Positions 11,121 through 57,140 of a stretch of DNA of 64,000 nt are shown in pieces. The stretch lies in assembly GCA_963769935.1 (NCBI GenBank), contig CAVYNY010000010.1:480001-544000 (forward strand), given 5' to 3'. Both the position numbers and the translations under genes were made by a program. Each line of letters starts with the position of its first letter. Within the stretch, counting starts at the first letter, position 1. The notes beneath the pieces were generated by a model. That model was not told the DNA's origin and ran no database searches. It worked only from the letters and a program-made list of their open reading frames with translations. This stretch comes from an uncultured delta proteobacterium. Its GTDB lineage: Bacteria; Desulfobacterota; Desulfobacteria; Desulfobacterales; JAFDCJ01.

Positions 11121-11451
11121 CGCGCACCGCTTTGGATTTCCTGCGAACAGACTTTGGCAGAAGCGCCAGCTTTTCCCTGGTTTGGCGCAGGTATTTCGGC
11201 AGCGTGCTTTCATCGGCATCAAACAGCTTGACGCCGACAATGGCGGCCGCTTCGAACACGGCTCCGATTTCGCATTTGAGGTTGCCTTTTTCGATGCGTT
11301 GCAGCAGTCCTCTGGAAATACCGGCGCGGTCGGCCAATTCCTGCGCGGTGAGCTTGCGCTCATTGCGCGCTTCGCGGATCAACGCGCCGAGCAAGGTGGC
11401 CGCATCGCGGCTATAGCGTGAGTAGGTGCGTGGGATGGACTTTGGCATCAT
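11110..11451 (-). CDS. XRE-family HTH antitoxin (HipB-like)
   Basis: IREARNERKLTAQELADRAGISRGLLQRIEKG; overlaps the hipA start. Confidence 0.85.
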   Translation of the reverse strand: MMPKSIPRTYSRYSRDAATLLGALIREARNERKLTAQELADRAGISRGLLQRIEKGNLKCEIGAVFEAAAIVGVKLFDADESTLPKYLRQTREKLALLPKSVRRKSKAVRDDF

Positions 11452-20663: not shown

Positions 20664-21062
20664 ATGAATAAACCACTTACAATTTTGGTCGCAGATCGCA
20701 ACTCCCACGTGCGGGAATTTCTGCAGAGAGAGCTAAAAGCGGAAGGCTACGATATCCGGTTGGCTAAATGCGGCCCGGAGGTCCTTAAATGGGCCTACCT
20801 TTTGCAATTCCTTGACCTTATCATTCTTGACCTGGATTTGCCCGACTTGGACGAACAGGCATTATTCAGCAAACTTCAGGACCGCATTCCGGTATTGCCG
20901 ATCGTGATCCATTCTTTTCAGTCGGATGGCGCGAAACGTTCCGTCAACTACGAAAATGCGGTTTTCGTAGAAAAAAGAGGAAACAGCATCGAAAAACTGA
21001 AAAAGGTGGTCAGCGAGCTCCTTGCGTACCGGGCAGCCAGCCAACCGTCAACAGCTAAATGA
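20664..21062 (+). CDS. Stand-alone receiver domain, atypical acidic pocket
   Basis: ILVADRN...LIILDLDLPD...FVEK. Confidence 0.8.
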   Translation: MNKPLTILVADRNSHVREFLQRELKAEGYDIRLAKCGPEVLKWAYLLQFLDLIILDLDLPDLDEQALFSKLQDRIPVLPIVIHSFQSDGAKRSVNYENAVFVEKRGNSIEKLKKVVSELLAYRAASQPSTAK

Positions 21063-23192
21063 CAGACACTTCCAGACCGAAACTTGCCAAGCGTATTGCC
21101 GTGTCCGTCGGTGCCGGAGGTATCCTTTTTCTGATTGCCGGGGCGCTGCTCGGTCTCTGGACCATTCAGGAAATGAAAAAAATCGTGACCGGCCAGTTCA
21201 ATCAGGAGCAGCTGGTCATCGCCCGCACGGTCAAGCAGCGCATCGAAAGAGAGATCAAATTTTTGGCAAAAGAGATCTCGTTGCTGGCGGGGAATATCTC
21301 AGCCGAGCCGTTGGCGCCGGAAAACGGCAATGAGCGCATCCAGCAGAGTTTCGCCCGGGTTCTGGAAAGCGGTGTTTGGAAGATTGAAATAATCGATCCG
21401 GCCGGCGGCCGCCGGCATATATTTATGCCCCATCGGCACTGGACCGCACAGCCCCCGGCCGAGATCGACCCCGATGATATCCCGCTGCCGCAGGGCCTCA
21501 CGACCGGAACGGTTTATATTTCTCCGGTCCGGATCAACGCATCCGGATCGGCGCTGGTCCTGGCGGCACCTTTATCCGCTGAACCCGTCCGGTATCTGGT
21601 TTTTCACATCAACGTTTCATGGCTGCTGGCCCCCTTTTTAAGGGAAATACGTTCCGGCCGAACCGGCTATGTCTGGCTGATCGATCAAACCGGCCGTTTT
21701 CTCTTTCATCCGGACGCCGGTTTCATCGGGAAAAATGCATTTACCGTACGCCGGCAAAAGTATCCGGATGTATCCTTTGTGAAGATCAATTTCATTCAGA
21801 AGGAAAAAATGCTCACCGGCAACGAAGGTACCGGCTGGTATGACTCGGGATGGCACCGGGGCATTACCGGCCCGATTAGAAAGTTGATTGCCTATTGTCC
21901 GGTGGTCATCTGTGAAAAGCCGGCTCAAACGTGGTCGGTGGCGGTGGTCGCACCGGTTTCGGAGATCGAGGGCGCCCTGCGAAAAAGTTCCCTGCAGTTG
22001 TTTATGCTGCAGGGATTGGTGATTGTCTTCATTGTGTCGGGCAGTGCCGCCCTGCTATGGTTTGAGATCCGCTGGTCGCGCCTGCTGGAAAAAAAAGTAT
22101 CCCAGCGTACCGAAGAGTTGAAAAAATCGGAGGAAAAATACCGCTCGCTGGTGGAAAGCGCCGAAGATTTCATTTTTACCGTTGACAACGGCGGTCAATT
22201 TCAATCCATGAACAGTTTTACCGCCAATTTCTTCGGCGGGCATCCGGATGACTTTGTCGGCAAACCTCTGGCGGGTGCATTTTCCGAAAAGATAGCCCAA
22301 AAGCAGCTTAAACTGATCCGCCTGGTGTATCAACACGGCAAGAGTGTCCGGGAAGAATTCGAGATCCAGCTGGAAGACCACCCTATCTGGATCAGCGCCA
22401 ATTTCATGCCCATCAAGAATGACCTCGGAGAAGTCGGTTCGGTTTTATGTATTGCCAGGGACGTCACCGAAAACAAAAATCTGGAAAGACAGCTGGTGAA
22501 TACCGAAAAACTCGCCTCGCTGGGGACGCTGGCCGCCGGGGTTGCCCATGAAGTCAACAATCCTCTGGGGGTGATCCTGGGCTTTACCGATATCTTGATC
22601 CGCAAAGCAGATAAAGACTCGCAGGACTATGAAGACCTTAAGATAATTGAACGGCAGGGATATCACTGCAAGGAGGTGGTCGAAAACCTGTTGAGTTTTG
22701 CCCGCCTGGAAGGAGGCAGCCTGGGACATGCCGATGTCAACGCGTGTCTGGAGGAAATCATCAAAATTGTCCGGCATGTTCTGGAAATGAACCGCATCGA
22801 GCTCGTCGCGCGCCTGCCCGGAGACTTGCCGCCGGCCAGAGCAGATGCGCGCCAGCTGCAGCAGGTGTTTTTAAACCTGATCAACAATGCCGTCGCCGCC
22901 ATGCCGGACGGCGGCACATTGACGATTCAAAACCGCCTTGAAAAAAAACAGCGCAAGAATTGCGGTTCAATTCCGGGATACCGGCTGCGGCATAAAACCG
23001 GCGGATATCGATCACATTTTCGAACCGTTTTTTACCACCAAACCGGAAGGACAGGGAACCGGTTTGGGATTATTCGTCAGCTATGGCATCATCGCCAAAT
23101 ATGGCGGCACCATCGACTGCTACAGCCGCCATAGCGACAACCCGGGCCGACCCTCCGGAACGACGTTTACCGTCAGACTGGTCCCGGTTTGA
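21059..23192 (+). CDS. Cache-PAS sensor histidine kinase (one frameshift at the A8 run 22941-22948)
   Basis: TM-Cache-TM, PAS, AHEVNNPL, N box; G1/F/G2 boxes (DTGCGI, FEPFFTTK, GTGLGL) continue in ORF 22938-23192. Confidence 0.88.
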
Positions 23193-23270
23193 CTGTGACT
23201 AAGTGCTCTTATTTGTGACTAAGTGCTCTATTGATGACGATTACGGTTACATACTGCCGGCAATAATTTT

Positions 23271-23380
23271 TTCACCGCAGAGGCGCGAAGGACGCAGAGG
23301 GAGGCTATATTTTATTTGCCGTTGAGAGGACGGCAAATAAAAAGAAAAGTTCTCTCTGCGATCTTTGCGCCTCGGCGGTA
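23271..23380. repeat. Palindromic intergenic element (CACCGCAGAG family)
   Basis: accgcagaggcgcgaag...ctttgcgcctcggcggt with an inner tttatttgccgt/acggcaaataaa stem; related ends near 31504, 34310 and 34475. Confidence 0.7.
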
Positions 23381-23546
23381 AGATTTGTATCTTTGGTGAA
23401 ATCAAAATTTCTTTAGGACATCCATTGATTATACGTAACTGTATCTATGAAACTATGACTAAGTCTCTTTACTTGTTTTGGCCCTTTTCAAAGTGGGCTT
23501 TCCGAGACTTCCTGTTCTGCGGGAGGCGAACTTACAGGAGCAATAG

Positions 23547-24973
23547 ATGAACGGCAGCATTTTAATCGTCGACGACGAAAAAGACATGCTGATTCTTTTG
23601 AAGCGGATTCTCTCTGAAGAAACGCCTTACAAACTGGTCACCGAGAGCGATCCGCGGCAGGCCCTGGAGCGGGTCCGGCAGCGCCATTTCGATGTGGTGC
23701 TCACCGATCTTAAAATGCCGGAAATGGACGGCATTCGGCTGCTGGAGGCGTGCAAGAAAATCAGACCCGAGATTTCGGTAATTATTCTGACCGCCTATGC
23801 CACGATCGAAAATGCGGTGGAAGCCATTAAAAAAGGCGCGCATGATTATATCACCAAACCGTTCCGCCGCGAACGCGTGCTTTTGACCCTTGACAAAGCC
23901 ATGAAATGGCAGGCCATGGTCGACGAGAACCGAACGCTGCGCCAGGCGCTGGCTGAAAGAAACGGGTTTGCATCCCTGGTGGGGTCGACGCCGGTGATGC
24001 AGAATATTTTCGAGCGGATCCATCAGGTCGCGCCCACCATGGGAACCGTGTTGATCACCGGCCCCAGCGGCACCGGCAAGGAACTGGTCGCCCGTGCCAT
24101 TCATCAGCACAGTTTGAGAAGCAAAAAAAAACTGGTTACCGTAAACTGTACCGCCATCCCGGAGCAGGTATTGGAAAGCGAACTTTTCGGCCATGTGAAA
24201 GGGGCCTTTACCGGGGCCTGGCAGGATAAAAAGGGCCTGGTTGAAACGGCGCATGAAGGAACGCTTTTCCTGGACGAAATCGGCGATCTCAGCCTCCAGA
24301 TGCAAACCAAGCTGCTGCGGCTGCTGCAGGAAGGCGAATACAAGCCGGTCGGCGGCGTCACCACCCGGCAGGCCGATCTGCGTTTCATCGCCGCCACCAA
24401 TCATGATTTGAAAGCCGACATCAGGGGGAACCGTTTCCGCGAAGATCTGTACTACCGGCTGAACGTCATCCGATTTGACCTGCCGTCCCTCAAGGAGCGG
24501 CAGCAGGACATCCCGCTGCTGGCCTATCATTTCCTGGAAAAATACGCCCGCCGCAACCAGAAAAATATCCCGTATATTTCACCGGAGGCCATGCAGATTC
24601 TCATATCACAGGAATACCCCGGCAACGTCAGGGAGCTGGAAAACACCATCGAACGCGGCGTCATCTTTTGCCGGTCGGATACCCTGAAAGTCAACGATCT
24701 TCAGCTGGAATACGACCGCAACGAGATTCCGGCGGAATTCAATGAAGACATCACCCAGCTGCCCTTTAGAGAAGCCAAGGATAAAATGACTGACATTTTT
24801 CATCGACTCTATATCCGGAGCCTTCTCTCAAAAAATGCCGGCAATATCAGCAAAGCGGCCGATATTGCCGGAATTCAACGCCAGTATCTTCATCGCCTCA
24901 TGAAGGAGACGGGCATCCGGGCCGAGGATTTCAGGCCCACCGACTATGTTCCATTTCACGGTACCGACATTAA
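23547..24973 (+). CDS. Sigma54-dependent response regulator (NtrC-type REC-AAA-HTH)
   Basis: REC, GPSGTGKE, ESELFGH, GAFTGA, FLDEIG, YPGNVREL, Fis-type HTH; real end estimated at ~24973-24996, annotated ORF reads through to 25550. Confidence 0.9.
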
Positions 24974-26778: not shown

Positions 26779-26889
26779 TAGTAGAACCGGTAAAGACGAA
26801 TCATCGACAGACGGAGTCCAATCGCTGTTCGGATGTGCAAATTCATAAAAAGCGTGAAACCATTAAACCCGATAGAGGAGGCAAACACT

Positions 26890-27930
26890 ATGACAGAAGA
26901 AGTCAAAACCAAAGGTTGGGAGGTAGCCCGGGATCTGGAGGCGAAAAAATCAACCATGTGGGAACGGTTTATGCCGGGGAAAAGACAGCTGATCGCTGCC
27001 GCCTGGGGATTTTCGGCCCTTTTCGCGGTATTTTTGCTGGGGTGCTGGCTGGCCGGCAATCCGTTTGAAGCCACCAAGCGGATTGCTTCGCCATTTGTCG
27101 AAAAAATGGGCTGGATTGGCACCAATGAATGGGGCATTCTCTGGAGCGTGGTATTGGTTGCCATGTTCTTTGAGTTTATGGATGCTTCGGCCGGTATGGG
27201 ATTTGGCACGGCCATCACGCCGCTGCTGCTGCTGATGGGATTTAACCCCAAGCAAATTGTGCCGGTGGTCATGATCCAGCAGGGCGTGGCGGGTCTGGTG
27301 GGGGCCTTTTTGCATCGCGAGTTTGAAAACGTGGAATGGAAGTTCAGTCCCATGTCGGAAACTATCAAACTGTGGCTGTACATCGCCATAACCGGCTGTG
27401 CGTCGGTAGCCCTTTCCATCACCGCCGTCTACGGCATATTTAACGTGGCCAAGATTTGGATCAAACTCTACGTGGCCGTACTGCTGGTGATGATGGGGGT
27501 CGTCTCGCTTTACCAATCGAAAAAAGACCGTCCATATAAGCCCAAAATGATGATCGGCTTTGCGGCCCTGGCAGGCTTTAACAAAGGCGTGGGCGGCGGC
27601 GGCTACGGCCCGGTAGTAACCGTCGGCGGCTTGATTGCCGGCGTGCCGGTCAAAAGCATGCTGGCCGTCACGGCCATATCGGAAGGCACCACCAGCACCT
27701 TCTCGGTCCTGGTCTGGCTGGCGCTGCTGACTAGTGGAGTGACCATCGACTATCTGCTGCTGCCGTCGATGATGCTGGCCACCATGTTCACGGCCGTGGC
27801 CGCTCCCTACACCACCCGGGTTTTTCCCGAAAAGGCCTGGAAGTTTATCGTACCGGTATACTGCTGCATTCTCGCCGCCTACACGTTTTACAAGGTCATA
27901 CCCGACATTGTCTCGAAGCTCGCCGGATGA
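26890..27930 (+). CDS. TSUP (TauE/SafE) family transporter
   Basis: DASAGMGFGTAITPLL and FNKGVGGGGYGPVV repeats, multiple TMs; RBS gaggag. Confidence 0.88.
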   Translation: MTEEVKTKGWEVARDLEAKKSTMWERFMPGKRQLIAAAWGFSALFAVFLLGCWLAGNPFEATKRIASPFVEKMGWIGTNEWGILWSVVLVAMFFEFMDASAGMGFGTAITPLLLLMGFNPKQIVPVVMIQQGVAGLVGAFLHREFENVEWKFSPMSETIKLWLYIAITGCASVALSITAVYGIFNVAKIWIKLYVAVLLVMMGVVSLYQSKKDRPYKPKMMIGFAALAGFNKGVGGGGYGPVVTVGGLIAGVPVKSMLAVTAISEGTTSTFSVLVWLALLTSGVTIDYLLLPSMMLATMFTAVAAPYTTRVFPEKAWKFIVPVYCCILAAYTFYKVIPDIVSKLAG

Positions 27931-28041: not shown

Positions 28042-28581
28042 ATGACCATTCAACAAACATCTGCAGCACTTTACTCCGGTGGGCAAACCTATCGGCGTAC
28101 CTACGGTCAACAGCGATTGGTTCATTTCGGCATCACCATGATCGTTATGGGTGTCTGTTTCTTTTTGTATTACCTGGGTTTTTTCGGCGGGGTGGACGGC
28201 CCCCTGAATCCGGCGCAATTGGGTGAACATCTGTCGGCTTCAGGCGTGTCCAGGGTGCACCTCATCATCGTGACTGCCGTTTTGATGCTTCTCTCCCTGG
28301 GCTGGAATTGGATCTTCAACCTGGCCTGTCTCCGGCTCGGCAGGCGCTTGACCTGCAGCCGGGCTGACGGACAAGGCGGTATCTGCGGCGGACCAGTCAG
28401 ACGGCAGGCGGCGGTACCGCAGGCAAAAAACAGCAATCGTAGCCTGCGCTATGTATGCACCCACGGTCACACGCTGCCGAAGGCCCACTTCCACCCAATT
28501 AAAAAAGGCACCATCAGCCATATGCTCTGGGTGACATCGCTGATATTTACCGTCGTTGTTTTGTACGCGTCCTATTTCTAA
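28042..28581 (+). CDS. Hypothetical membrane protein with Cys/His cluster
   Basis: 3 hydrophobic segments; LTC...ICGG...YVCTHGH...AHFH; RBS ggag. Confidence 0.65.
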   Translation: MTIQQTSAALYSGGQTYRRTYGQQRLVHFGITMIVMGVCFFLYYLGFFGGVDGPLNPAQLGEHLSASGVSRVHLIIVTAVLMLLSLGWNWIFNLACLRLGRRLTCSRADGQGGICGGPVRRQAAVPQAKNSNRSLRYVCTHGHTLPKAHFHPIKKGTISHMLWVTSLIFTVVVLYASYF

Positions 28582-28813: not shown

Positions 28814-29657
28814 GTGAACACCAAAGTCCGTGTCCTGCTGGTTGATGATGAGGAGTCCTTTGCAGTGAACCTGAGCCGGCTCCTGCAAAACAGGAACTTT
28901 GAAGTGGTCACCGCCTTCGATGGGTTTCAGGCACTCGAGGCTGTCCGCAGCGCAGACGCCTTCGACGTCGCGGTGCTGGACGTCAAAATGCCCGGCATGG
29001 ACGGCACGGCAACCTTGAAAGCGATTAAAAAACAGTCCCCCCAGACCGAAATCATCATGCTGACCGGCCACGCGACGTTGAAATCCGGCATTCAGGCCAT
29101 CCGGGAAGGTGCCTTCGATTATCTCATGAAACCCTGCGACATCGAAGATCTGGCGACGAAGATACGCGAAGCATATGATGTCGAAACCATCAGACGGCAT
29201 CCGGTACTGTGGCCGCGCAACAAAGTCGAAGAAATCATCTGCTGCGCCTTTGAGCGGTTGGACCCGGATGCCCGGCTGGCGGAGGCGCTGGAGGTTTTTA
29301 AACCGGAAAACGGCACGCGGACGTCGGAAACGGCCTATATCCTGGACAACCAGGACCGGCTGCTGGGGTTCATTACCCGGCGGGATCTGATGGAGGCCGC
29401 CCGGGAAACCGAGCCCGGAATTTTCGTTAACCTGGAACGCCTTGCGTGAAAACCCCCATTGGCTCCCTCCCAAGAGACTGCGGGACGTTATGCACACCCG
29501 GCTTTTCCATTGCCGGCCGGATGAACGCCTCTCGGATGTTGCCTACCAGATGATCACCAAAAGGTATCGAACCATGCCGGTTGTCGATCAGGGCAAGGTT
29601 GTGGGCGTTGTCAGGCTGCAGGATATCTTTCTACACCTGGAGCATGAAATCGAGTAG
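28814..29657 (+). CDS. Receiver + CBS-pair protein (frameshift near 29440)
   Basis: LLVDDEE...LDVKMPG...LTGH...LMKP, then CBS motifs split over ORFs 28814-29449 and 29442-29657. Confidence 0.82.
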
Positions 29658-29763
29658 AACATCCCGGTCCAGCTCTGTGGTGAAAAAATATTACTTCGAA
29701 TACGCCATCATAATTATGAATATGAGTAAGAGTATTAGGTAAGCTGCGGGAGGCCAGGCAGGC

Positions 29764-31456
29764 ATGGATGAATTTCTGAATATACGCTGTCCCAGGAGCG
29801 CTCCGGCGATTTTCCTTATTTTCGCCGCACATGGAATACCGTGGTCGTCACGCTGCTGGCCGCGGCCTTTGTACCGCTGATCATCATCGGCGGCGGCAAT
29901 GTATTCCTATCTCACTTGGGTTATCAAGCAAAAGACTGTTGCCACCCTGCGGGTGGATGCGCTCGATCTCAAGAATGCGGTCGATCAATTTCTGGCGGAA
30001 CGGACCATGGATCTGAAGCTGATATCCGAAAATATCGGGTCTGCGCAGCCTGCGCGATCCGCAGACCCTGCAAAATGTCTTTCACTCCCTGCAGCAGCAG
30101 TTGCCCTGCTATACGGACCTGGGGGTCATCGATGATCAGGGCCGTCATCTGGCCTATGCGGGCCCTTATGATCTTTTAGGGAAAAATTACCGGCAGGCCG
30201 ACTGGTTTGAAATCGCAATGGCCCGCGGCGTATACATCAGCGATGTCTATTTGGGATACCGCAATACCCCCCACTTCGTCATCGCCGTCAAAGCAGGCCG
30301 GCAGTGACGGCGCCTGGCTTCTGCGCGCTACGATCGACACCGATTATTTCCATCGCATGATCGCCGCCATCGCTGAAAAGAGCAATGCCGACGCCTATCT
30401 CGTAAATCGCCGGGGTGTCTATCAGAGCAGGCCCCGTTCGACCGGACAGTTAATGGAGCAGTCCCGGTTTACGGATCTCAAGCCGTTTGAGGGAGTCGCA
30501 TTTCGAGAAGCAAACGATCATCTGTTGATGACCGTCTGGCTGGAAAAGGTCCCCTGGCTGTGTGCCGTCCGGATGGATCGCAAAAATGCCTTCGCCGAGC
30601 TCAGGCGCATTCGTATGATCGGCATCTGGGTCTTCGTGCTGGCAGCCATCCTGATCGTGATGAGCGTGCTGCTGACCACCAACCATCTGGTGTCCCGCCT
30701 GGAAGTCAAACGCCGCAGCATCCGCTTTCTGGACCGCCAGCTGCGCCAGTCCAATCGTCTGGCGTCGGCCATGGAATTGGCCCTCGGATTTTTCCGGGAA
30801 ATAAAAGACGGCCTGGCAAATATCGATGCGGCCGCCATGAACATCCAGGATCTGTGCCGCAGCAATCCGGCGGCGGAAATAACCGAGAGCCTCTCGCAGC
30901 TTCGATCGGAAACGGCCCGCGCCGCAGGTCCATCGATAAATTCCTGCGGTTCACCCGCAGCACCGAACCGATCGTCAAGGCGCTGAATGTAAACGAAGTG
31001 CTCGATGATTTGGTCGAATTGGTGGACAAAGAACTGCGCTTCAACAACATCCGGCTGGTCCGCAACTATGAAGATTCCCTGCCTGCCATCCGCAGCGATC
31101 CTGCCGGCCTGCGCCAGGTCTTTCAGAATCTGATCCTCAATGCCGTGGCCGCCATTCAGACCAACGGCGAAATCTCGCTGACAACCCGGCGACAGGCCGA
31201 CAATGTGGTGGTAGCGGTCGCCGATAGCGGTCCGGGAATCGCCGCGGAGCATCTTGCAAAGATCTTTGAACCGCTGTTTACCACCAAGCCCGGCGGAACG
31301 GGTTTAGGGCTGCCGATCTGCGCCGACATCCTAAAGCGTTTGGGCGGGCGGATTGCCGTGCACAATCCGCCGGAAGGCGGAGCCTGCTTTGTGGTAAGTC
31401 TTCCGATTCAATTCAACCCTCACCCGGATGAATTGGAACCAAAAAGAACAAATTAA
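29764..31456 (+). CDS. Cache sensor kinase-like protein with degenerate H-box (multiple frameshifts)
   Basis: Pieces in ORFs 29841, 29899, 30101, 30207 and 30560 align with paralogues 34832 and 37375 (DLGVID..GRHLAY.GPY, YISDVYLGYR..PHF, LRATID); HATPase boxes intact; start approximate. Confidence 0.75.
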
Positions 31457-31490
31457 TCACGAAAGCACGAAAGGACGAAAACACGAAAAA
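31453..31490. repeat. CACGAAA-type short repeat element
   Basis: ttaatcacgaaagcacgaaag identical to the reverse complement of 43565-43585. Confidence 0.65.
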
Positions 31491-31579
31491 GCAGTAATAT
31501 TTTCCACCGCAGAGGCGCCAGGCTTCGCTAAAGCTAAGACCCGACAAGCAGAGATCGCAAAGAGTGATTATTTTTTATT

Positions 31580-34024
31580 ATGATAAAACGGGAAAACCTC
31601 AAACAAGCCATCGAAGAAATTTCAAAGCGCGATCCCGCCATCGGGTATTCCCTGGATGCCATGCTCGGGGCGGGCGAAATCGGAGTGCCGGATAAAACCG
31701 ACTGCCGGCAATGGGGCCGACGAGCTTTTTTTTCTCTTCAAAGGTCAGCCCGTTTTTGTCAAAAAATATCTGTATTTCCATGAAGGTACCGTCCCGCTCG
31801 AACAGCAGCTGCTCATCAAATACGGGGAGCTGGTTAAAAAGCAGGAACTGCAGGACAAGCTCCGGCCCCGTCGATTACCTCCGGGCCGCCGGCCAGATCC
31901 ACCGGGCCGCGCTCAAATTGATGGTCGGCCATGAGATCGATTATGCCGTCACCCGCCTCCGCAGCGAGCTGGCACAACTAAAACCCGGCAGCGATGAGCT
32001 TGCCGATCGACCCGATGCCCCTGAAAACGGATCGGCCGCTCAGTTTGCGCACCGCCGCCGTATTCAGGAACTCAGCGGCCTGATCACTTTGCTGGAAACC
32101 GTCCAAGAAGATGACCGGCCGCTGGCGGAGTACCTGAAAGACAGCCGCACCGCGGGCGATTCGACATTCCAGGCGGATGGGGTGGTCGAATATGTCACCC
32201 CGGCCCGGTTCATGCCATTTCCCTTTTGTCTGGATGCCCTGCTGCAGGTGGCCGCCATGAACCTGGAATTCTTTCATGTCCGCTTTCTTTTAGCCTGTTT
32301 AATCGGATCAAACCGGCCAGCGGCTGTATGCCTGTGTGGCTGCAGGAAAAATTCTGGGTTTGATCTTTCTTGAGCCGAAAACAAATTTTTTAAAGCAAAG
32401 TCTGGAAATAAAATATCTGGCGACCGTCGGCGGGCTCGCCCAAATTCTGCCGGATCCGCGGTTGAAAAAAGTTCGCGGGGTGGGCACCTTTCTGGTGGCC
32501 GGCGCCTGGCTGCTCTGGAAAAGCTGTTTTCCGAAGGCCGGGGAATTGGTCCTGAGCGCCGAAATCGGCGCAACACGCTTTTACCGTTCCATCGGGTTTC
32601 GTCGGCGCCGCCCCTTCGAATACGTACTCGAGGCGCCCGCGGGATTTTTGCTGCGCAGTATTCTGGTGATGGTCAACAACCTGTGCCAATCCCGCCGCCG
32701 GGCTGCTCGCTGCGACCGGCGGCCTGATTGAATCACAGATCAGGCGCCTGCACAAAAAGCTCTCATGGACACGCGGCGCAGGTCCAGCGCAAGATGATTA
32801 TTTGCTTTTTTAAAAGTTTGTCTGCAATCCCGCACCCACCCGATTTTAGCCGACCAGTTGGTTCGGCATCTGTTCAAATACCGCACTAAATTACCCGAAG
32901 CCGCGGACCTGCTGGATCTGGCGGCCGAGTCCGGATGGGTGCGATTGTATCGGGCGCCGCCGCCCAACGTTCAACCGCTGCTGGTGGCCTGCAGCGATCA
33001 GTTCACCCGCCACCTGGAAAACATTTTTCATCTGGAAAACGCCAAACGCATCCAGGCCGTTCAATCCGTCATGCAGCACCCGACGCTGGCCGGTAAATGG
33101 CAGGCGGTTGAACCGCGTCCGGCCTCAATCGAAGAGCTTGCCTGGGTGCACACGGCCGGGCACATCGAACGTATCGCAGCGACTGCCGGCAAGCCCCTGA
33201 GCGTCCTGGACCCGGACACCCAAACCAGCGAGCAATCCTATGAAGTTGCGCTTCTGGCAGTCGGCGCAGTATTCAATCTTCTGGATGCCGTCTGCTCCGG
33301 CAGCGGAAAACGAGGATTTGCATGCATCCGCCCTCCGGGGCACCATGCCGAACCGGACAGGGCCATGGGATTTTGTCTGTTTAACAACGCGGCCCTGGGC
33401 GCCCGTTACCTGCAACGGCGCTGCGCCGTCGAGCGCGTCATGATTGTCGACATCGATGCCCATCACGGCAACGGCACCCAGGCCGCGTTTTATGACAACA
33501 ATGACGTCCTTTATGTGTCCCTGCATCGATTTCCGGGATTTCCGGGCACCGGCAATTTCGGCGAGGTCGGCTGCGGCCGGGGCGAAGGCTTCACGGTCAA
33601 TGTGCCGCTCGGCGGCGGTCAGGTCGACCGAGACTTTATCGAAATCATTTACTACCTGGTCCACCCGCTGGCGCGTCACTTTAAGCCCGGCATGATCTTG
33701 GTGTCCTGCGGCTTTGATCTTTACCTGCACGACCGCCTGGGGGGCATGCGCGCCACACCCGAAGGTTATGCCCTGCTGAGCGCGCTGCTGGTGGACATTG
33801 CCGAGCAGGTATGCGGCGGGCGCATCCTTTTTATCCTGGAAGGCGGCTACAGCATCAAGGGAATTCAAGAGTGCGGCCTGTACCTGCTGCAGGAGCTTTG
33901 CAGTGTGTCGCCCGTCCGCCGCGACAAGCTGAATCAAATCATCACCAATCCCCGGCCCAAACTCGCGCCATTAATAAAAGCCATCCAGATCCAGCAGCGC
34001 TACTGGCCGACCTTGATCGCTTGA
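31580..34024 (+). CDS. Putative ~810-aa fusion: unknown N-domain + GNAT acetyltransferase + Zn-dependent deacetylase (HDAC family), frameshifted
   Basis: Successive ORF pieces 31580, 31656, 31711, 32336 and 32858; GNAT motifs LEIKYLAT, VRGVGTFLV, ATRFYRSIGF; no good independent start for the HDAC part. Confidence 0.6.
32858..34024 (+). CDS. Histone deacetylase family domain (intact reading frame)
   Basis: RPPGHHAE, GFCLFNN, DIDAHHGNGT, SLH, FPGTG, NVPL, GFDLYLHD, LEGGY. Confidence 0.93.
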   Translation: MVRHLFKYRTKLPEAADLLDLAAESGWVRLYRAPPPNVQPLLVACSDQFTRHLENIFHLENAKRIQAVQSVMQHPTLAGKWQAVEPRPASIEELAWVHTAGHIERIAATAGKPLSVLDPDTQTSEQSYEVALLAVGAVFNLLDAVCSGSGKRGFACIRPPGHHAEPDRAMGFCLFNNAALGARYLQRRCAVERVMIVDIDAHHGNGTQAAFYDNNDVLYVSLHRFPGFPGTGNFGEVGCGRGEGFTVNVPLGGGQVDRDFIEIIYYLVHPLARHFKPGMILVSCGFDLYLHDRLGGMRATPEGYALLSALLVDIAEQVCGGRILFILEGGYSIKGIQECGLYLLQELCSVSPVRRDKLNQIITNPRPKLAPLIKAIQIQQRYWPTLIA

Positions 34025-34831: not shown

Positions 34832-36628
34832 ATGGAAACCCGGACAGCAACCCCCAACGGCAGCCGCGAGAGCAGCACCGGTGAGTGGCGCAAGAAATAC
34901 TACTCGCGTTTGTTCCGCAAATTCGTTCTTTTAACCGTCTTCTGTTCGCTGACGCCGCTGCTGCTGGTGGGGTGGGGCATAAACATTTATTACACGCGCT
35001 TCGCCAGGGAGCGCATGCTGAATGATCTGCAGACCGAGGTAGCACACCATCGTAAAATTATCGAACTTTTTTTAGCCGAGCACAGCTCAAAGCTGCGTCT
35101 TATCGCCCATTCCCATTCGAAAATCGATTTAACCCGGATTTCGAACCTCACCGGCATTTTCGATATGATCAACCGCGATTACTGGGCCATCACCGACCTG
35201 GGCATCATCGATGCCGACGGCCGGCATCTGGCCTACATCGGTCCCTATGATTTAATGAGCAAAAATTATTCCGAGGCGGTCTGGTTCAAAGAGGTCATGC
35301 AAAAGGATATCTACATCAGCGACATGTTCATGGGATTCCGCCAGGAGCCTCATTTTATCATCGCGGTAACGCGCCTGGAAAACGGTGCCAAGTGGATTTT
35401 ACGCGCCACCGTCAATACGGAGGTCTTTCGCTCCCTGGTCGAAAATGTCCGCATCGGAAAAACCGGTCAAGTGTACCTGCTCAACCGCGAAGGCTATTTT
35501 CAAACCACTCCTCGCTTCCAGGGAAAAATAATGGAAAAGGCGCCCTACCCCATCGAAGCCTACCAGCCGGGCATGCGCGTCAGAGTTCTGGCAGCGCAAA
35601 ACGGAGACGCCTCCGGAAGCCGGCCGCGTCAAATCGTATGCGAAACATGGCTTGAGAACCCAAAGTGGCTGCTGGTGGTCAGGCAAAATTATGCCGAAGC
35701 TTTCAATGACGTCAATCACGCCAACTATGCCATCCTGATCTTTCTTCACCTCAGCGCACTGACCATTCTGGTGGTCGCGATTCTGATTACCCGGCATATG
35801 ATTTCTGTAATCAAAAATCGCGACCGGGAAGCCGACCAGCTGAGCCGGCAGCTCTTGCAGACAGGAAAGCTGGCGGCTATCGGCCAGCTGTCGGCCGGCG
35901 TGGCGCACGAAATCAACAACCCGCTGGCCATTGTGCTGACCGAAAGGCAGCTTTTGCTGGACGCCGCCGAACGACATCAGATTCAAAGCCGGGAGTTTGA
36001 GATCCAATTTGAAGATTCCATGAACCAAATCGATGTGCAGGTGCAGCGCTGCAAACGCATCACCCACAATTTGCTCAGATTTTCCCGCCGGACGGAATCC
36101 CTTCTGGAAACGGTGGATATCAATCAGTTTATCAGGGAAGTCATCGAGCTGATGGAGCGCGAGGCGCGGGCCGACGGAATTAAATTCCAGGTGGACCTGG
36201 ACGAGTCGCTGCGGCCGTTGGTTTCCGATATTTCCCAGCTTCAGCAGGTTTTTTTAAATATCATTACCAATGCCATTGACGCCCACGACGGCAAACCCTA
36301 CGGTGCCATCCGCATTAAAACCAGGGCCGGCAAAAACAACGACGGGGTGTCGATTTCATTCAGTGACAGCGGTTCGGGCATTGCGCCTGAAAATTTAGAT
36401 AAAATATTTGACCCGTTTTTTACCACCAAACCCGTGGGCAAGGGCACCGGCTTGGGTTTATCGATCTGTTACAGCATCATGAAACAGCTGGGCGGACACA
36501 TTGCCGTGCAAAGTGAAGTCGGCAAGGGATCTGAATTTACGCTGTTTATTCCCGACAATCCGCCCACACAACTACGGGAAGACATGGCCAATGCGCAGGG
36601 AGCGCAGTTGGCGGCAATGTCATTCTAA
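34832..36628 (+). CDS. Cache sensor histidine kinase
   Basis: 2 TMs, [10 protein letters not shown]1/F/G2 boxes. Confidence 0.93.
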
Positions 36629-36640
36629 AGGAGGAACACC

Positions 36641-37099
36641 ATGATAGGATCAAAAATTTTGCTGGTCGATGATGAAGTCGTATTTACCCAGAATATGGCA
36701 AAGCTGCTGTCCAACCGGGGATATGCCGTCACGGTGGTCAACAACGGGGATGCTGCGATTCGAGCACTGGAGGAAAAGGATTTTGACGTGGTGGTGCTGG
36801 ACCTCAAGATGCCCGGCAGGGACGGTATCACGACCCTGAGGGAAATCAAAAAACTCGGTCTGCTCACCCAAACGCTGATTCTGACCGGGCACGGCTCGAT
36901 CGATACCGCCCTGGAGGCGATCAAGATAGGGGCCTATGACTATCTCACCAAGCCGTGTGAAATTGACGAACTCATCGGCAAAATTGAAGGCGCTTGGGAA
37001 AAAAAAGACGGTGAAGTAAAGAAAGACATCCAGGAAAAGATCCAGAAAGTGGTGGAATCGCCCCAGGATGTATTCGACCTGTTTCCGAAGAAAAAATGA
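36641..37099 (+). CDS. Stand-alone response regulator
   Basis: LLVDDE, LDLKMPG, LTGHG, LTKP. Confidence 0.92.
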   Translation: MIGSKILLVDDEVVFTQNMAKLLSNRGYAVTVVNNGDAAIRALEEKDFDVVVLDLKMPGRDGITTLREIKKLGLLTQTLILTGHGSIDTALEAIKIGAYDYLTKPCEIDELIGKIEGAWEKKDGEVKKDIQEKIQKVVESPQDVFDLFPKKK

Positions 37100-37374: not shown

Positions 37375-39063
37375 ATGAAATCGAATCCATACGGCGCGCT
37401 TAAAAAGACGATTTTGACCTGTATGATCCTGGTGCCTTTCATCCCATTCATTCTGGCGCTGGGCATCGGCTACTACAATTTTGCCGCTTCGCTGGAAAAC
37501 AATGCCACCACCGGCATGCACCGCATCGTGCGCGACCATCGCCAGATGATCGAATCATTTCTGATGGAAAGAAAAGCGGATCTGGAATTCATTCTCAACA
37601 CCCACGGTTTTGAAGAGCTGCGCCGGCCGGAAAACATTGAACGTGTTTTTGAAAATTTGCAGAAGGAATCACCGGCCTTCGTGGATCTGGGAATTTTCGA
37701 CGAAAACGGTCTGCATGTGGCCTATATCGGACCCTATCAGCTGTCGGGCAAGGATTATCACGAGGCTCCCTGGTTTAAAGCAGTGATCAAAAACGGGTTT
37801 TTTATCAGCAATGTGTTTCTCGGCTACCGGCAGGTGCCGCATTTTGTGATCGCCGTCGCTCAGACAGCCCAAGATCGCCCGTGGGTTATCCGCGCCACCA
37901 TCGACAGCCACATTTTCAATGATCTGGTCAAAAATGTCCGGATCGGTAAAACCGGCGAGGCCTACCTGCTGGATGCCCAGGGCATTTTTCAAACAGATCG
38001 GCGCTCCGGCGGAATCGTGATGCACCAGGATCCGGATCGCCTGAAGTACGGTCCGGTTCTTGCGGGGATCAAAACATTTATTGATACCGATGCCTTGGGG
38101 GAAACCTATCTGTATGCGACCACCTGGCTCAAAGACAACAGCTGGCTGTTGGTGGCTCGCCAGGAGAAAGCCGATGCCTTTCATGCCCTGCGCCGGGCCG
38201 CCTATCTGATCGGGTTGATCAGTATTCTGGGAGGCGCCGGAATTATCGCCGTGGCCTTCTTTGTGACCGGCCTCATCGTCCGCCGCATGGAACGTACGGA
38301 CCGGGAAAAAAATCAACTGGGGGAGCAGCTCATCCGGGCCGGCCGGCTGGCCGAAATCGGGGAGATGGCCGCCGGGTTTGCCCATGAAATCAACAATCCG
38401 CTTCAGATCATCAAAAGCGAACACGCCCTGGCGGAAATGATTCTGACCGATCTGAAAAGCAAGGGCCAGTTGACGCCATCCGAAGATTTGACGGACCTGG
38501 AAGATTCCATCGATCAGATTAAACGCCAGGTGGACCGCTGCGCGGAAGTCACCCAGGCGATTCTGAAATTTGGTCGCAAAGGAGAACCCGTATCCCAGGC
38601 CATCGATCTGGGCGGCCTTATTCCGGATGTCGTCGGGATGGTCACCCGGAAAGCCGAGGTGCACGGCATCACCATCAAACATCAAATCGCCGCGGATATT
38701 CCCGCCGTCTACGGCGACCCCCGACATCTCCAACAGGTGCTGGTGAATCTGCTCAACAACGCCATCGATGCCGCCATCGAACGCCACGGGACTTCAGGGG
38801 GCGAAATCCGGATCGAGTCCGCCCCTTCCGCGAAAAACCGTCATGTGGAAATCAAGGTGTGCGACAACGGCAGCGGCATCAGCACGGAAAACCTGGAAAA
38901 AATTTTTACCCCCTTTTTTACGACCAAGCCGGTCGGCAAGGGAACAGGACTCGGGCTATCGGTATGCTACGGCATTATCCAAAAGATGGACGGGGACATG
39001 GCGGTTGCCAGCCAGGAAAACGTCGGCACGACATTTACCATCCGGCTGCCCTCAATGGGCTAG
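37375..39063 (+). CDS. Cache sensor histidine kinase
   Basis: 2 TMs, [11 protein letters not shown]1/F/G2 boxes; paralogue of 34832. Confidence 0.93.
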
Positions 39064-39292
39064 TATGGGTGCTTAACAAGGCGACATCGACTATTTGTTG
39101 TTGATGTTGATGATGAGGTTGCATTTTAACGTTATGAATGGACTCGAAGTGAAAATGACTAATCCGCCTAAAAAATGGCGGGCAAGAATGAGCTAATCCG
39201 CCTGTGGTGGACTATCGTTTTTAAATAGACAGAATACCGCAAATATTCAATCTTCAATCTTCAATTTTCAATGAACAAGTAGGGAGTTTACC

Positions 39293-39754
39293 ATGGAAAA
39301 AATGAAAATATTGCTGGTGGACGATGAACAACGCTTTCTGGCCACCACCCAAAAGCTGCTGGCCAAAAAAGGGATCGATGCGGTCACCGCTGCCGGCGGA
39401 GCAGAAGCCCTGGACATCTTAAACAGCCGGAGCATCCACGTCGTCATCCTGGATGTTAAAATGCCGGGGATGGACGGCAATGAAACCTTAAAGGAAATTA
39501 AAACACGGTTTCCGCTGGTGGAGGTCATCATGTTGACCGGCCATGCCACGGTGGACTCCGCCATCGACGGCTTGAAATCCGGCGCCACCGATTATCTGAT
39601 GAAGCCGACCGGTATCGATGAACTGATCGAGAAAGCTACGGAGGCTTTTGAAAAAAGGCAGCGCCTGGAGGAAAAAATACGGTTGGCCCAGGCTCGGCAG
39701 TTCATGAAATCGCCGCGGGAAATTTTAAAAGGGGCTGGGAACCTGGAAAGTTGA
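39293..39754 (+). CDS. Stand-alone response regulator
   Basis: LLVDDE, LDVKMPG, LTGHA, LMKP. Confidence 0.92.
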   Translation: MEKMKILLVDDEQRFLATTQKLLAKKGIDAVTAAGGAEALDILNSRSIHVVILDVKMPGMDGNETLKEIKTRFPLVEVIMLTGHATVDSAIDGLKSGATDYLMKPTGIDELIEKATEAFEKRQRLEEKIRLAQARQFMKSPREILKGAGNLES

Positions 39755-39768
39755 GAAAAGAGGATATT

Positions 39769-41622
39769 ATGGCAGAACGGACCAAAATCAAAGCGACCGG
39801 TTATGACAAGTACGTCAATTGGAAAATATTTTTCATCCCTGTGACCCTCCTGTTCGTTATTTTACTGATGCCCACACCCTACGGCATGCAGGATGTCGGT
39901 ACCGAATACAAAGTCGGGCCCAGGGCGGTTGTCAATTTTCTCACGGAAACACTGTTCAGCAAAAAGAGCGGGTCAGCCGAACAATGGGAACTGGCTTGCG
40001 CCCAAATCATGGAACAAAACATGCAGATGGGTGCGTTGGGGAAAAAGGGTTTCCTGAAGCGCAATTTAAAATGGGCGCAGAGCTACGGCATCCCCGTCGA
40101 CAAGGAAAATTTTGACAAAGCCATGGCCTTTGTCAAAGAGCGTATCAGCGATGAGGATTACCTGGCAACCATGCAAAAAGCCCTGACGCTGCGCAAAGAC
40201 GGCCTTAAATACGAAGAACTTTCCGCCCAGGACCGGCCGGCGGCCGACAAGGGCGCCTGGCATATCAAAGTCGCCATGGCCATGGTGGTTTTCGTCGCCA
40301 TCTGTTTTTTAACGGAGTGCATTCCCCTGCCCGGTGTGGCCTTTTGTGTCGGCTTGCTGCTGGTATTTACCGGTGTGGTTTCGCGCAAAGAAGTCGCCAT
40401 GCTCTACTGGGACGATGCCGTCTGGTTTATTATGGGCAGCCTCATGTTTGCCGCCGCCTTCGTAAAAACCGGCGTGGACAAGCGCGTGTGTCTGATGATG
40501 TTCAGCAAGCTCGCCGTCCCCAACGTACGCTGGATCACCCTGATTTTTTTTGCCATCATCAGTCCGCTGGCGGCGTTTATCTCCGACCATGCGCTGGCCG
40601 CGATGTTTCTGCCCATCGGCATGCTCCTGTATCAGAACAGTTTGACCCGCGAGGTTCCCGAAGATCCCGAGCTGGGCAAAATGCTGATGATTTCCATTGC
40701 CATGGCCTGCAATATCGGGGGTCCCGGGGCCCCGTCGGGAGGAGCCCGCAACGTAATTATGATGACGTACCTGAACGATATGTTCGGCATGGATATCGGC
40801 TATTTTCAGTGGGTCGTCTACTGTTTTCCCTATGTGATCGTCATGATTCCCCTGACCTGGTTTTTCGTCAACTGGCGGTTTAAACCCAAAATTCATTCTC
40901 TGGCGCCGGCCATGATCCAGCTGAAACGTGAAATCGATAAAATGGGCGGCTGGAACCGGCGGCAGATTTCGGCCCTGATAATATTTGTGCTGATGGTCTT
41001 CGGCTGGTTCACGGAAAAGACCTTTTACGAAATGGGCATATTGCCGGTGCGTCTGGGAATCGGTGTGATTGCCATGGCCGGTGCCGTAGCGTATTTGTTT
41101 GCCGGCGTCACCAATTGGAGAGATTATCAGGAAAAAGTGGATTGGGGCGTGATCTGGTTGTATGCCGGGGCGATAATTTTCGGCCGAATTCTGGACAGTA
41201 CTGGAGCAGCCTACTGGCTGGCACGCTCCGTTCTGGAGGTCCTGGCACCTTTGGGCATGAATTCCGGCATTCCCCTGCTGGCCACCTCCAACGGCCTGAC
41301 CGCCGTCATCACCAATCTGATGGCCGATGGGCCGGCTGCCGCGGCTGTCGGTCCGATTACACTCAACATGGCCGGGCTGGCGCATCCGGGCACTTCTTTT
41401 CTGCCGTTTATGTCAATGAGCACCGCCATTGCTTCGTCATTCGCCTATTGCCTGATTATCGGCACCCCGCCCAACGCCATCGTATATGCCAGCGGCTACC
41501 TGGAACCCAAGGATTTTTTGCGGGTCGGCCTGCCGCTGTGGATTGTGGCCAACGTGCTTTTGGTATTGATAAGCGCGATTTTCTGGCAAATGATGGGCTT
41601 TGGCGATTTGCCGATTTTTTAA
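39769..41622 (+). CDS. SLC13/DASS family anion transporter with large soluble insert
   Basis: LTECIPL, FISDHALAAMFLP, PSGGARN, VDWGV, IGTPPNAIVY; RBS gagga. Confidence 0.9.
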   Translation: MAERTKIKATGYDKYVNWKIFFIPVTLLFVILLMPTPYGMQDVGTEYKVGPRAVVNFLTETLFSKKSGSAEQWELACAQIMEQNMQMGALGKKGFLKRNLKWAQSYGIPVDKENFDKAMAFVKERISDEDYLATMQKALTLRKDGLKYEELSAQDRPAADKGAWHIKVAMAMVVFVAICFLTECIPLPGVAFCVGLLLVFTGVVSRKEVAMLYWDDAVWFIMGSLMFAAAFVKTGVDKRVCLMMFSKLAVPNVRWITLIFFAIISPLAAFISDHALAAMFLPIGMLLYQNSLTREVPEDPELGKMLMISIAMACNIGGPGAPSGGARNVIMMTYLNDMFGMDIGYFQWVVYCFPYVIVMIPLTWFFVNWRFKPKIHSLAPAMIQLKREIDKMGGWNRRQISALIIFVLMVFGWFTEKTFYEMGILPVRLGIGVIAMAGAVAYLFAGVTNWRDYQEKVDWGVIWLYAGAIIFGRILDSTGAAYWLARSVLEVLAPLGMNSGIPLLATSNGLTAVITNLMADGPAAAAVGPITLNMAGLAHPGTSFLPFMSMSTAIASSFAYCLIIGTPPNAIVYASGYLEPKDFLRVGLPLWIVANVLLVLISAIFWQMMGFGDLPIF

Positions 41623-41649
41623 TCGGTATGCAACATTAAGGAGCAGAAC

Positions 41650-41814
41650 ATGAAACAAAAAAGCGCCGCTGCGAGTCCGCCGCAAAACGAGGCTCTGCTT
41701 CATTTCAGAGAAGGCAAAATCTATTTCAGCCGTCAAACCGAGCGCAGGTTTTTCTTTGCCCTGACGGTCATGATGCTGATTCTCGGGCTTTGCTTTAAGC
41801 TGGGAATCTTTTGA
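41650..41814 (+). CDS. Small 54-aa single-TM protein (not in the ORF track)
   Basis: RBS aaggag; MKQKSAAASPPQNEALLHFREGKIYFSRQTERRFFFALTVMMLILGLCFKLGIF; fills the gap in the operon. Confidence 0.6.
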   Translation: MKQKSAAASPPQNEALLHFREGKIYFSRQTERRFFFALTVMMLILGLCFKLGIF

Positions 41815-41828
41815 GAGGTTTCAGAAAA

Positions 41829-42350
41829 ATGCCGGTCAATGAAGCACTCACGTTCCGATTTTATTTTGGCACCTTGACTCACCTGTTGAGGCATCCCCGT
41901 GAATTTTTCAGCGAGCTTCCCGGCGAGGTCGGAATGGGCCGGGCCTGCGGATTTTTATTCGTATCCGCCGTGGTATTCACCGCAGCCGGTCTGCTGCGCA
42001 ATGGATGGACCCAGCCGCTGGTCGCCGGCGGCATCCAGCTGTTGAATGCCGTCGGCCTGACCTTTATTTTGGCGGCCCTGGGCTGGATGGTCATGCGTCT
42101 GACAGCGCCCAAAAAGGTGGCGTTTGTAAGATTGTTCAGCATTTATGCCTTTGCTTCCGGGGCGGCGCTGCTGGCGGCCTGGGTGCCCTATTTTGTGATA
42201 CTCACCGAACCCTGGAAATGGTGGCTGATCGGCACCGGCATGATCAGAAGCTGCGGCCTTAAACCGGGGCAGGCGCTGGTGGTGATCGGATTGTCCGCCG
42301 GCCTCTGGACGCTGTTTGTGTGGGCCGTCCTACCGCCAAGCGTCCCCTGA
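41829..42350 (+). CDS. YIP1-like membrane protein
   Basis: LLRHPREFF, five hydrophobic segments, IYAFASG..LL.WVP. Confidence 0.7.
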   Translation: MPVNEALTFRFYFGTLTHLLRHPREFFSELPGEVGMGRACGFLFVSAVVFTAAGLLRNGWTQPLVAGGIQLLNAVGLTFILAALGWMVMRLTAPKKVAFVRLFSIYAFASGAALLAAWVPYFVILTEPWKWWLIGTGMIRSCGLKPGQALVVIGLSAGLWTLFVWAVLPPSVP

Positions 42351-42460
42351 CCGGCGGTACCCAGGCAAGCGGATATCGGCCGGGTTTGAGCATTGATTTT
42401 TCCACGGTGGCGTGTGACGATTAAACGCGATAACGGATCAAGGAAAAGGAAGAAGATAAG

Positions 42461-43363
42461 ATGAGCAAAAAAATTAGAGTTTTGATGGTCGACGATGAGG
42501 AAAAGTTTCGATCGACCACCAAAAAAATTCTCGATCGACGCGGATTCGACACCCTGGTTGCGGCCAGCGGTGAAGAAGCCCTTGAAAAGCTGAAGGAAAG
42601 TCCGGATGTCGTGGTTATGGATGTCAAGATGCCCGGCATGGACGGCCATCAGACGCTTCATGAAATGAAGAAGCGCACCCCCGCCACCCCGGTAATCATG
42701 CTCACCGGCCATGGAGCGCTGCCCTCCGCCAAAGAAGCGCTCGAACAAGGTGCCTTCGATTACCTGACGAAACCCTGCGACATCGATATACTGGCAGCTA
42801 AAATCACCGATGCCTTCCGGCACCGGAAACCGGCCGAAGAAATTAAGGAGAAAACCGTCGCGGATGTCATGATCCCGATAGCGGATTACACCACCGTAAA
42901 TCAGAACAGCACCGTCGGTGAAGCCATTGACAAACTGCGCGAATCATTCTTCTCCCGGGAAGCCACCAGCCGCATTATGGAAACCGGTCACCGCTCCATC
43001 ATGGTATTCGACGACCAGGGGGATGTCATCGGCATCCTGGCCATTATCGATCTGCTCGACGCTGTCATGCCGGGGTATCTCAGCGCGCCCAAGCCTTCGA
43101 CGGCGGACAGCATCCAATATTCGCCCATGTTCTGGAGCGGCATGTTCACCAGAGAGATCCGGAAAATTGCCGCCCAAAAGATTTCCGATGTAATGTCCCC
43201 GGCTCCCCTGACGATCAGCGCCGAAGCCAATCTCATGGAGGCCGCCTATGCCATGGTGGCCAATAAAAAAAGACGCCTGGCAGTTGAGCAGTCCGATAGG
43301 ATCATCGGCATCATCCGGGAGCAGGACCTGTTCTTTGAAATCGATAGAATTCTGCGCGAGTAA
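42461..43363 (+). CDS. Receiver + CBS-pair protein
   Basis: REC motifs, then VADVMIP...ISDVMSP...IGIIREQDL. Confidence 0.9.
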   Translation: MSKKIRVLMVDDEEKFRSTTKKILDRRGFDTLVAASGEEALEKLKESPDVVVMDVKMPGMDGHQTLHEMKKRTPATPVIMLTGHGALPSAKEALEQGAFDYLTKPCDIDILAAKITDAFRHRKPAEEIKEKTVADVMIPIADYTTVNQNSTVGEAIDKLRESFFSREATSRIMETGHRSIMVFDDQGDVIGILAIIDLLDAVMPGYLSAPKPSTADSIQYSPMFWSGMFTREIRKIAAQKISDVMSPAPLTISAEANLMEAAYAMVANKKRRLAVEQSDRIIGIIREQDLFFEIDRILRE

Positions 43364-56965: not shown

Positions 56966-57023
56966 GTTTTGACTCCTGTCTGATGTATTATTTCTATTAC
57001 AATTTACCGTTGGCTTCATAATC

Positions 57024-57039
57024 AGCAAGCTGTGTGCCA
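57024..57039 (-). promoter_or_regulatory. Sigma54 promoter of hemerythrin-qNOR
   Basis: TGGCAC-acagc-TTGCT. Confidence 0.82.
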
Positions 57040-57077
57040 AAAATTTTATATATTAATTTCATTTAGTTAGAGAATGT

Positions 57078-57139: not shown

Positions 57140-57140
57140 C

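Follow-up and report, generated by a model that had tools for sequence, protein, structure and literature searches.

The window, a stretch of 64,000 nucleotides from an uncultured delta proteobacterium, carries on its forward strand a pseudo-histidine kinase gene (29765..31456, hereafter pHK) within a cluster that recurs in related genomes. Most of 24 genome loci share one gene order: Cache/PAS kinase, sigma-54 regulator, TauE, small membrane protein, REC-CBS-CBS, pHK, GNAT(-HDAC), HK1 and REC1. In the window, the Cache/PAS kinase, with one indel near 22954, and the sigma-54 response regulator, which head the cluster in most loci, occupy 21059..24950 (+). They are followed by a TauE/SafE-family anion exporter (26833..27930, +), a conserved small protein with hydrophobic segments that belongs to no Pfam or NCBIfam family (28042..28581, +), and a REC-CBS-CBS protein with canonical receiver motifs (28814..29657, +; one indel near 29410), hereafter REC-CBS, which lies directly upstream of pHK in 22 of the 24 loci. 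Downstream of pHK lie the GNAT-HDAC gene (31580..34024, +), whose product consists of a helical N-domain, a GNAT domain, a helical linker and a Zn-dependent HDAC-family deacetylase; HK1, a canonical Cache histidine kinase with an HEINNP box (34832..36628, +); and the stand-alone receiver REC1 (36641..37099, +), which has alpha1 residues in common with REC-CBS. The window cluster then runs on into a second module (37375..43363, +) of HK2, REC2, a DASS anion symporter, a protein without assigned family and a second REC-CBS-like protein.

Several other features were observed along the window. The alpha1 residues pair REC-CBS (28814-29657) with REC1 (36641-37099; F..N), and the second REC-CBS (42461-43363) with REC2 (39293-39754; F..T); this sequence pattern suggests that each canonical kinase may serve one stand-alone and one CBS-fused receiver. 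Sigma-54-like -24/-12 motifs occur at 37243 (+), 26357 (-), 57040 (-) and 47872 (+), one of them upstream of HK2 and one upstream of a small CBS-like gene. A short REP-like intergenic element at 31416-31512 is repeated, with high summed depth in all four runs (bin depth 23-430 vs about 5). A HipA-like kinase gene (9861-11363, -) lies close to the window's low-GC left part, and 54141-58718 contains a NorB-like gene for nitric-oxide reductase (-) together with a GAF sigma-54 activator (+).

The pHK product, about 557-562 aa in intact relatives, is organised as TM1, Cache, TM2, coiled coil, His-less DHp and CA/GHKL. The Cache domain of the window copy lies between the two TM helices, and two N-terminal pieces matched dCache_1 weakly, while the C-terminal piece matched HATPase_c with an E-value of 5e-26 (Pfam); the HATPase_c domain spans 31097..31408 (+), and the window copy retains its N, G1, F and G2 boxes. 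No PAS match was found in pHK, and no pHK piece matched HisKA in Pfam, whereas both neighbouring paralogous kinases did. The open frame 30309-30920 is stop-free across the H-box, which reads LASAMELALGFFREIKDGLANI in the window translation. The His site, variable within the pHK family, is occupied here by Arg (CGG, 30795..30797, +), followed by GAA ATA AAA GAC GGC (E-I-K-D-G), and the equivalent codons of the paralog at 34832 are CAC GAA ATC AAC AAC CCG (E-I-N-N-P after His), with four codons differing between the two H-boxes. The original prediction that His had become Arg and NNP had become KDG, in a continuous frame and by changes in several codons, is thus confirmed at the codon level. Position H+4, where HisKA kinases carry the phosphatase Thr/Asn according to the available text of PMC3510030, is Asp in the window pHK (30807..30809, +), and the pHK-family-specific Asn(+8)-Ile-Asp(+10) of DHp helix 1 (30819..30827, +) is a putative new binding surface.

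Five indels interrupt pHK in this assembly (at about 29780, 29899, 30040, 30296 and 30920), all of them outside the H-box, and about a dozen lie across 29400-32800, the REC-CBS and GNAT-HDAC genes included, nearly all being single-base insertions. The GNAT-HDAC gene alone contains several, and in the closest genome it encodes a single protein of 811 aa. A check of 22 genes (26.5 kb) from other parts of the genome that carries the window showed three frame switches. Contigs of close relatives lack all five pHK indels (run X1: 53 differing letters of 1294 in 30115-31408), no H-box indel is among the listed differences from them, and contigs about 96-100% identical, from other samples, also lack these insertions. 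One 550-base piece differed from the window by 7 substitutions and 3 single-base gaps. The five frameshifts in the window pHK are probably assembly errors in a poorly polished stretch. A recent inactivation of the module in this one strain is unlikely and, even if real, cannot explain the loss of His.

Database searches returned 79 homologs with 42-93% identity to pHK, most of them 550-570 aa long, and a precomputed HisKA domain was present in 0 of the 79. In these and the window sequence (n = 80), the His site was Arg in 54, Gln in 6, Leu in 6, His in 5, Phe in 4, Gly in 3 and Glu in 2. Among 54 family members under 80% identity, it was Arg in 27, His in 7, Gln in 6, Leu in 5, Glu in 3, Ser in 2, Gly in 2, Tyr in 1 and Phe in 1; His was therefore absent in 47 of the 54, and the other 7 keep it in degenerate boxes. 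In comparison, canonical controls showed H-E-x-N-N/T-P in 27 of 27. Pro at +5 was not among the six commonest residues listed for the 54 pHK members. Position H+4 was acidic in 54 of 54 (Asp 49, Glu 5), and this was also the case in a second set, taken from loci retrieved through the neighbouring gene and comprising 67 rows with 50 distinct boxes, where H+4 was acidic in 67 of 67 (Asp 50, Glu 17) and Asn occupied +8 in all 67. Other conserved residues of DHp helix 1 in the 54-member set were Asn at +8 (49), Asp at +10 (46) and Trp at +15 (31), and +3 was K, N or R in 47.

In a tree built from 99 family members and 33 canonical sequences, a single branch (FastTree support 1.0) set the family apart from all the others, and by its sequences pHK is one clade of Cache-type kinase homologs in Desulfobacterales. 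The dN/dS ratio was 0.18 between the window pHK and its homolog in genome G399, and 0.19-0.34 in 10 other pHK pairs, DHp and CA included, compared with 0.10-0.20 for HK1 in the 8 of those 10 pairs having HK1. pHK is under purifying selection, slightly relaxed, and the loss of His is ancient rather than decay. The original prediction of a conserved, non-autophosphorylating pseudo-kinase is supported by this family-wide alignment, as far as sequence can speak for activity, and its refuting case, that orthologues keep the His, fails. It had paired that case with real frameshifts as the sign of a decaying pseudogene. Decay or sequencing error as the source of the missing His could draw on the density of indels at this locus and on the patchy occurrence of the family, including its absence from same-genus genomes. 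The indels are indeed present, but they are nearly all single-base insertions missing from near-identical contigs, full-length His-less homologs reach 93% identity, and the low dN/dS and the single, fully supported clade also stand against such an origin, which is extremely improbable here and already refuted at the level of the family.

Among 401 genomes of the order, pHK occurs in 28 (29 matches, one of which was canonical); a look at 22 same-genus genomes found it in 0. It was not found outside the order in a 400-genome phylum sample, where five matches were rejected as canonical kinases; a related-locus search of genome contigs returned mostly generic kinases, with L024 as the only ortholog. 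The names of the database homologs likewise place the family in Desulfobacterales. Relative to G399 (locus L134), a genome of another family, dS was about 0.4 for pHK and TauE and 0.9-1.6 for HK1, HK2, HDAC and REC-CBS. This contrast, together with the missing pHK in the 22 same-genus genomes, suggests gene exchange or a binning problem. Five more distant His-less Cache kinase homologs without an acidic +4 (P0096, P0110, P0119, P0217 and P0229) may represent another degenerate branch or a second group of pseudo-kinases.

Other routes to phosphotransfer were considered and rejected. No column of the cytoplasmic region holds a compensating His in more than 24 of 54 members, and Arg, present at the site in only 27 of 54, does not qualify as a functional phospho-acceptor. 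A split kinase, with the HEID-like His of the neighbouring GNAT protein as acceptor, was dismissed, that residue being Tyr or Phe in part of 23 homologs. GHKL Ser-kinases of the SpoIIAB/PDK type have a Glu four residues before the N-box Asn; pHK has Asn at that position in 49 of 54 members and was rejected as a kinase of this type.

The CA motifs are well kept, with the N-box Asn in 53 of 54 members, the G1 Asp in 54 of 54 and the glycines retained, and they are intact in 62 of 67 of the second set; by these motifs, pHK therefore likely binds nucleotide. The catalytic consequences of the altered H-box can be judged from CrdS, for which the accessible part of the report (PMC3510030) describes that an H371A mutant still dephosphorylates, making His dispensable for phosphatase activity, that Thr/Asn at H+4 is required for it, that N375D has no measurable kinase and no significant phosphatase activity, and that loss of the +5 Pro lowered phosphatase activity. 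Since H+4 is acidic and near-fixed in pHK and CrdS N375D is inactive, both canonical activities are likely absent, and by this analogy pHK would be neither kinase nor phosphatase, the phosphatase part being drawn from a single mutant in a different kinase. In an AF2 model, the G399 homolog kept the DHp hairpin and GHKL fold (mean pLDDT 85), and its fold matches included WalK, NifL-NifA, ZraS, HK853 and DivL (4q20), with the NifL-NifA complex 9qq6 ranking second. The NifL NCBIfam model scored 82 bits on pHK against a cut-off of 242.

The neighbour never lost from pHK, in the loci examined, is GNAT(-HDAC): in 24 of 24 genome loci it is the next gene downstream. Across the order, 39 of 401 genomes were found to carry the GNAT part. 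Among 80 metagenome loci, GNAT and HDAC were fused in 27 and separate in 40, with 10 at a contig edge and 3 where HDAC was not seen; a kinase-like gene was found upstream of GNAT in 67 of the 80, the other 13 having less than 300 bases upstream before the contig edge, and a canonical H-box was seen in 0 of the 58 upstream genes with a visible box. The metagenome query (A4) held no hairpin-less GNATs, which biases these counts by undersampling pHK-less loci. Fold searches, which covered the GNAT core only (residues 193-367), gave NatC with a best E-value of 4e-4 (Foldseek) and VIA with a Z of 13.1, an rmsd of 3.4 and 161 aligned residues. The HDAC-family domain matched Pfam at 1e-91, and its Zn and catalytic motifs were each present in 45 of 48 sequences. 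The fusion places opposing activities in one chain, and its N-terminal helical domain has no Pfam family (window 31580-34024; L134:6170-8605). We infer that GNAT-HDAC is the partner of pHK; gene adjacency alone is weak evidence of partnership.

Natural losses across the family showed which parts of the system can be dispensed with. Cache was deleted in frame in 7 pHK sequences that do not form one clade (p-AU 3e-64, using 32 of 84 rows), and both Cache and the ATP motifs were lost in genus g419 and in L167, with the DHp motif kept. Thus the original claim that the Cache sensor and the ATP-binding boxes are retained holds for the window copy but does not extend to other lineages, which can lose both. 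Minimal forms of 341-351 aa, without Cache and without ATP motifs, were seen in L289, L290, L291, L295 and L167, and consist of two TM helices, DHp and a dead GHKL fold. No REC-CBS ortholog was found in G242, G829 (100% complete), G816 and G800, where the control, G867, was matched at 7e-28; these four genomes keep pHK with D+4/N+8. An HK1 ortholog was likewise not found in G044 (100% complete) and G845 (90%), where the best match of the HK1 search had 41% identity vs 54-66% in other genomes, and the pHK motif is intact in both. Cache, the ATP motifs, REC-CBS and HK1 are each dispensable in some lineages, and the altered DHp helix is kept.

The opposite loss was observed in four genomes of genus g58, in which pHK was not found (24 of 24 profile matches were canonical) and REC-CBS and GNAT-HDAC are kept. 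GNAT-HDAC persists there without pHK, and pHK is therefore accessory. In these genomes, the GNAT N-domain was the most diverged of 14 domains, at 0.70 of the reference identity, compared with 0.89 for the REC-CBS receiver, 0.97 for the HK1 DHp and 1.04 for REC1, and its long helical hairpin was deleted. The same hairpin deletion was found in G400, whose pHK has lost N+8/D+10, and the alpha1 Asn of REC-CBS was changed in the four g58 genomes and in G400. This co-degeneration was seen in one lineage only (g58 plus G400).

A predicted complex of two pHK chains (305-550) with GNAT (1-355) scored 0.46, the best of three controls reaching 0.00; its runs agreed in at least 78% of contacts, and the partner pLDDT was at least 72. 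In calibration, 116 of 157 solved pairs and 2 of 215 mismatches passed the mark; those that passed it at 0.60 or under were only 18 of the 157 and both mismatches. By the tool's own rating, a score in the range of 0.46 is wrong more often than right unless the pairing was already likely on other grounds. The calibration suits a job of two plus one chains only roughly, and the prediction gave no interface. We consider that this model lends weak support to the pairing of pHK with the GNAT protein.

We tentatively favour a reading in which pHK is a membrane pseudo-histidine kinase, likely without phosphatase activity, that acts in the fashion of NifL by binding the GNAT-HDAC next door and tuning acetylation. 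The GNAT protein would dock, by its helical N-domain or hairpin, on the altered DHp helix (E-I-K/N-D-x-L-x-N-I-D), and pHK would tether GNAT-HDAC to the membrane; in forms with Cache and CA intact, a periplasmic ligand, which may be the same as that of the canonical paralogs and is possibly sulfate, and ATP/ADP would modulate the grip on GNAT-HDAC. REC-CBS, likely phosphorylated by HK1, would add a second, AcuB-like input, and the acetylation switch would sit in a sulfate-transporter cluster. More speculatively, pHK may be a phosphorylation-free, membrane-anchored regulator of a single-chain acetyltransferase-deacetylase, through which an external anion and ATP/ADP set acetylation directly, with phosphorylated REC-CBS as an AcuB-like second input to the control of sulfur-anion transport.

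The main rival of this NifL-like reading is a receiver binder resembling DivL, in which the His-less DHp would bind phosphorylated REC-CBS or REC1, block hydrolysis and relay their state. It accounts for the conserved new residues on DHp helix 1, for the position of REC-CBS directly upstream in most loci, for the altered REC-CBS alpha1 Asn in the four pHK-less genomes and G400, and for the loss of phosphatase chemistry, which would fit the protection of a phosphorylated receiver; DivL is also among the fold matches. Positions +4, +8 and +15, which we take to lie on the receiver-docking face of canonical kinases (HK853-RR468), fit it equally well, and the K, N or R at +3 in 47 of 54 members matches R553 of DivL, also at +3 and needed for binding of phosphorylated DivK in the available text of PMC4211667. 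However, four genomes in which REC-CBS was not found still keep pHK with D+4/N+8, and REC1 stays conserved (1.04) where pHK is lost; we regard a DivL-like role as rather unlikely, its REC1-binding version being possible. The same losses bear on the partners proposed in the original prediction, paralogous kinases or a receiver, which are less supported now that pHK occurs in four genomes where REC-CBS, and in two where HK1, was not found. The constant companion of pHK, the GNAT(-HDAC) protein, did not figure in that prediction.

As a heterodimer partner or inhibitor, pHK would dilute a canonical Cache kinase, co-sense with it or lend its CA domain in trans. The invariant residues of the pHK Cache are mostly common to the canonical paralogs, the N-box Asn and G1 Asp are kept, and heterodimers in a ChrS pseudokinase background have been described in the portion of PMC9491836 available, but the pHK motif is intact in G044 and G845, where no HK1 ortholog was found, the HK1 DHp is unchanged (0.97) where pHK is lost, and CA-dead, Cache-less pHK forms persist. 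We consider such pairing quite unlikely, with other Cache kinases as possible partners. A dedicated, His-independent phosphatase for the receivers of the cluster, with a non-canonical role for the invariant acidic residue, is very unlikely. The dispensability of His in CrdS H371A would allow it, and +4 is constrained rather than drifting in a protein whose nucleotide pocket is mostly kept; nevertheless, in the accessible part of PMC3510030 the Asn-to-Asp change at +4 abolished this activity and loss of Pro at +5 reduced it, and both changes occur across the pHK family.

Histidine pseudokinases are already a known class (DivL, NifL, PsmA), few of which are characterised. Judged by titles and the beginnings of abstracts, searches of the open-access literature for a His-less kinase in sulfate reducers, or for one linked to an acetyltransferase, gave no paper on this family, and what may be new here is a pHK family with a possible acetylation-enzyme output. 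According to the available text of PMC12998190, NifL of Azotobacter vinelandii is homologous to histidine kinases and has DH and GHKL domains, yet shows no kinase activity; it controls a protein other than a receiver by binding it directly, and ADP/ATP modulates this control. pHK resembles it in its DH/GHKL kinase fold and, by the reading proposed here, in non-catalytic control of a non-receiver. NifL senses through PAS domains, which are in tandem and carry FAD, and acts on the AAA+ domain of NifA, whereas pHK has two TM helices, a Cache domain and GNAT-HDAC as its putative target, and the GHKL motifs of pHK were lost in one lineage. DivL of Caulobacter crescentus, as far as the available text of PMC4211667 goes, also has its His replaced, shows neither activity and uses DHp helix 1 as a binding surface, the absence of both activities in pHK being an expectation from sequence. 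DivL carries Tyr in place of the His, contains PAS domains, binds an ATP analogue weakly, and binds phosphorylated DivK. In contrast, pHK has a variable site (Tyr in 1 of 54), an acidic +4, mostly intact ATP motifs and an adjacent receiver that can be lost. PsmA of Streptomyces, in the portion of PMC12963549 available, is likewise a conserved pseudokinase whose His-site residue varies; it lacks a D/ExxT/N motif and binds DivIVA, a non-two-component protein. Unlike pHK, it is built as a PAS hybrid kinase, its CA domain is degenerate, and it acts in polar growth.

On the output side, the window holds GNAT, a CBS protein and an HDAC-family deacetylase in one gene block, as the AcuABC system of Bacilli combines a lysine acetyltransferase, a CBS/Bateman protein and an HDAC-type deacetylase in one operon (available text of PMC13121692). 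In comparison with that description, the acetyltransferase and deacetylase are often one polypeptide here, the CBS pair is fused to a receiver (REC-CBS-CBS, where AcuB has CBS and ACT domains), and a pseudo-kinase is inserted. AcuABC has an acetyl-CoA synthetase target as a neighbour; the conserved block here showed no such gene, and no acyl-CoA synthetase match was found among the window ORFs scanned.

The losses seen across the family, of Cache, ATP motifs, REC-CBS, HK1 or pHK itself, form a natural deletion series with which to test which surface is essential and which protein is the partner. Desulfobacteraceae are major carbon oxidisers in marine sediments. The closest known setting is the DASS sulfate-transporter cluster of Desulfobacteraceae, with its Cache sensor kinases, receivers, CBS proteins and DASS transporter (PMC11887813). 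The model of sulfate-uptake control published for this group assumes phosphorylating sensors, and the available text treats the sensor kinases as such, with no His-less member and no TauE mentioned in that part (PMC11887813). To this picture the pHK family adds a putatively non-catalytic sensor and a GNAT-HDAC fusion, which would bring a post-translational layer to sulfate uptake.
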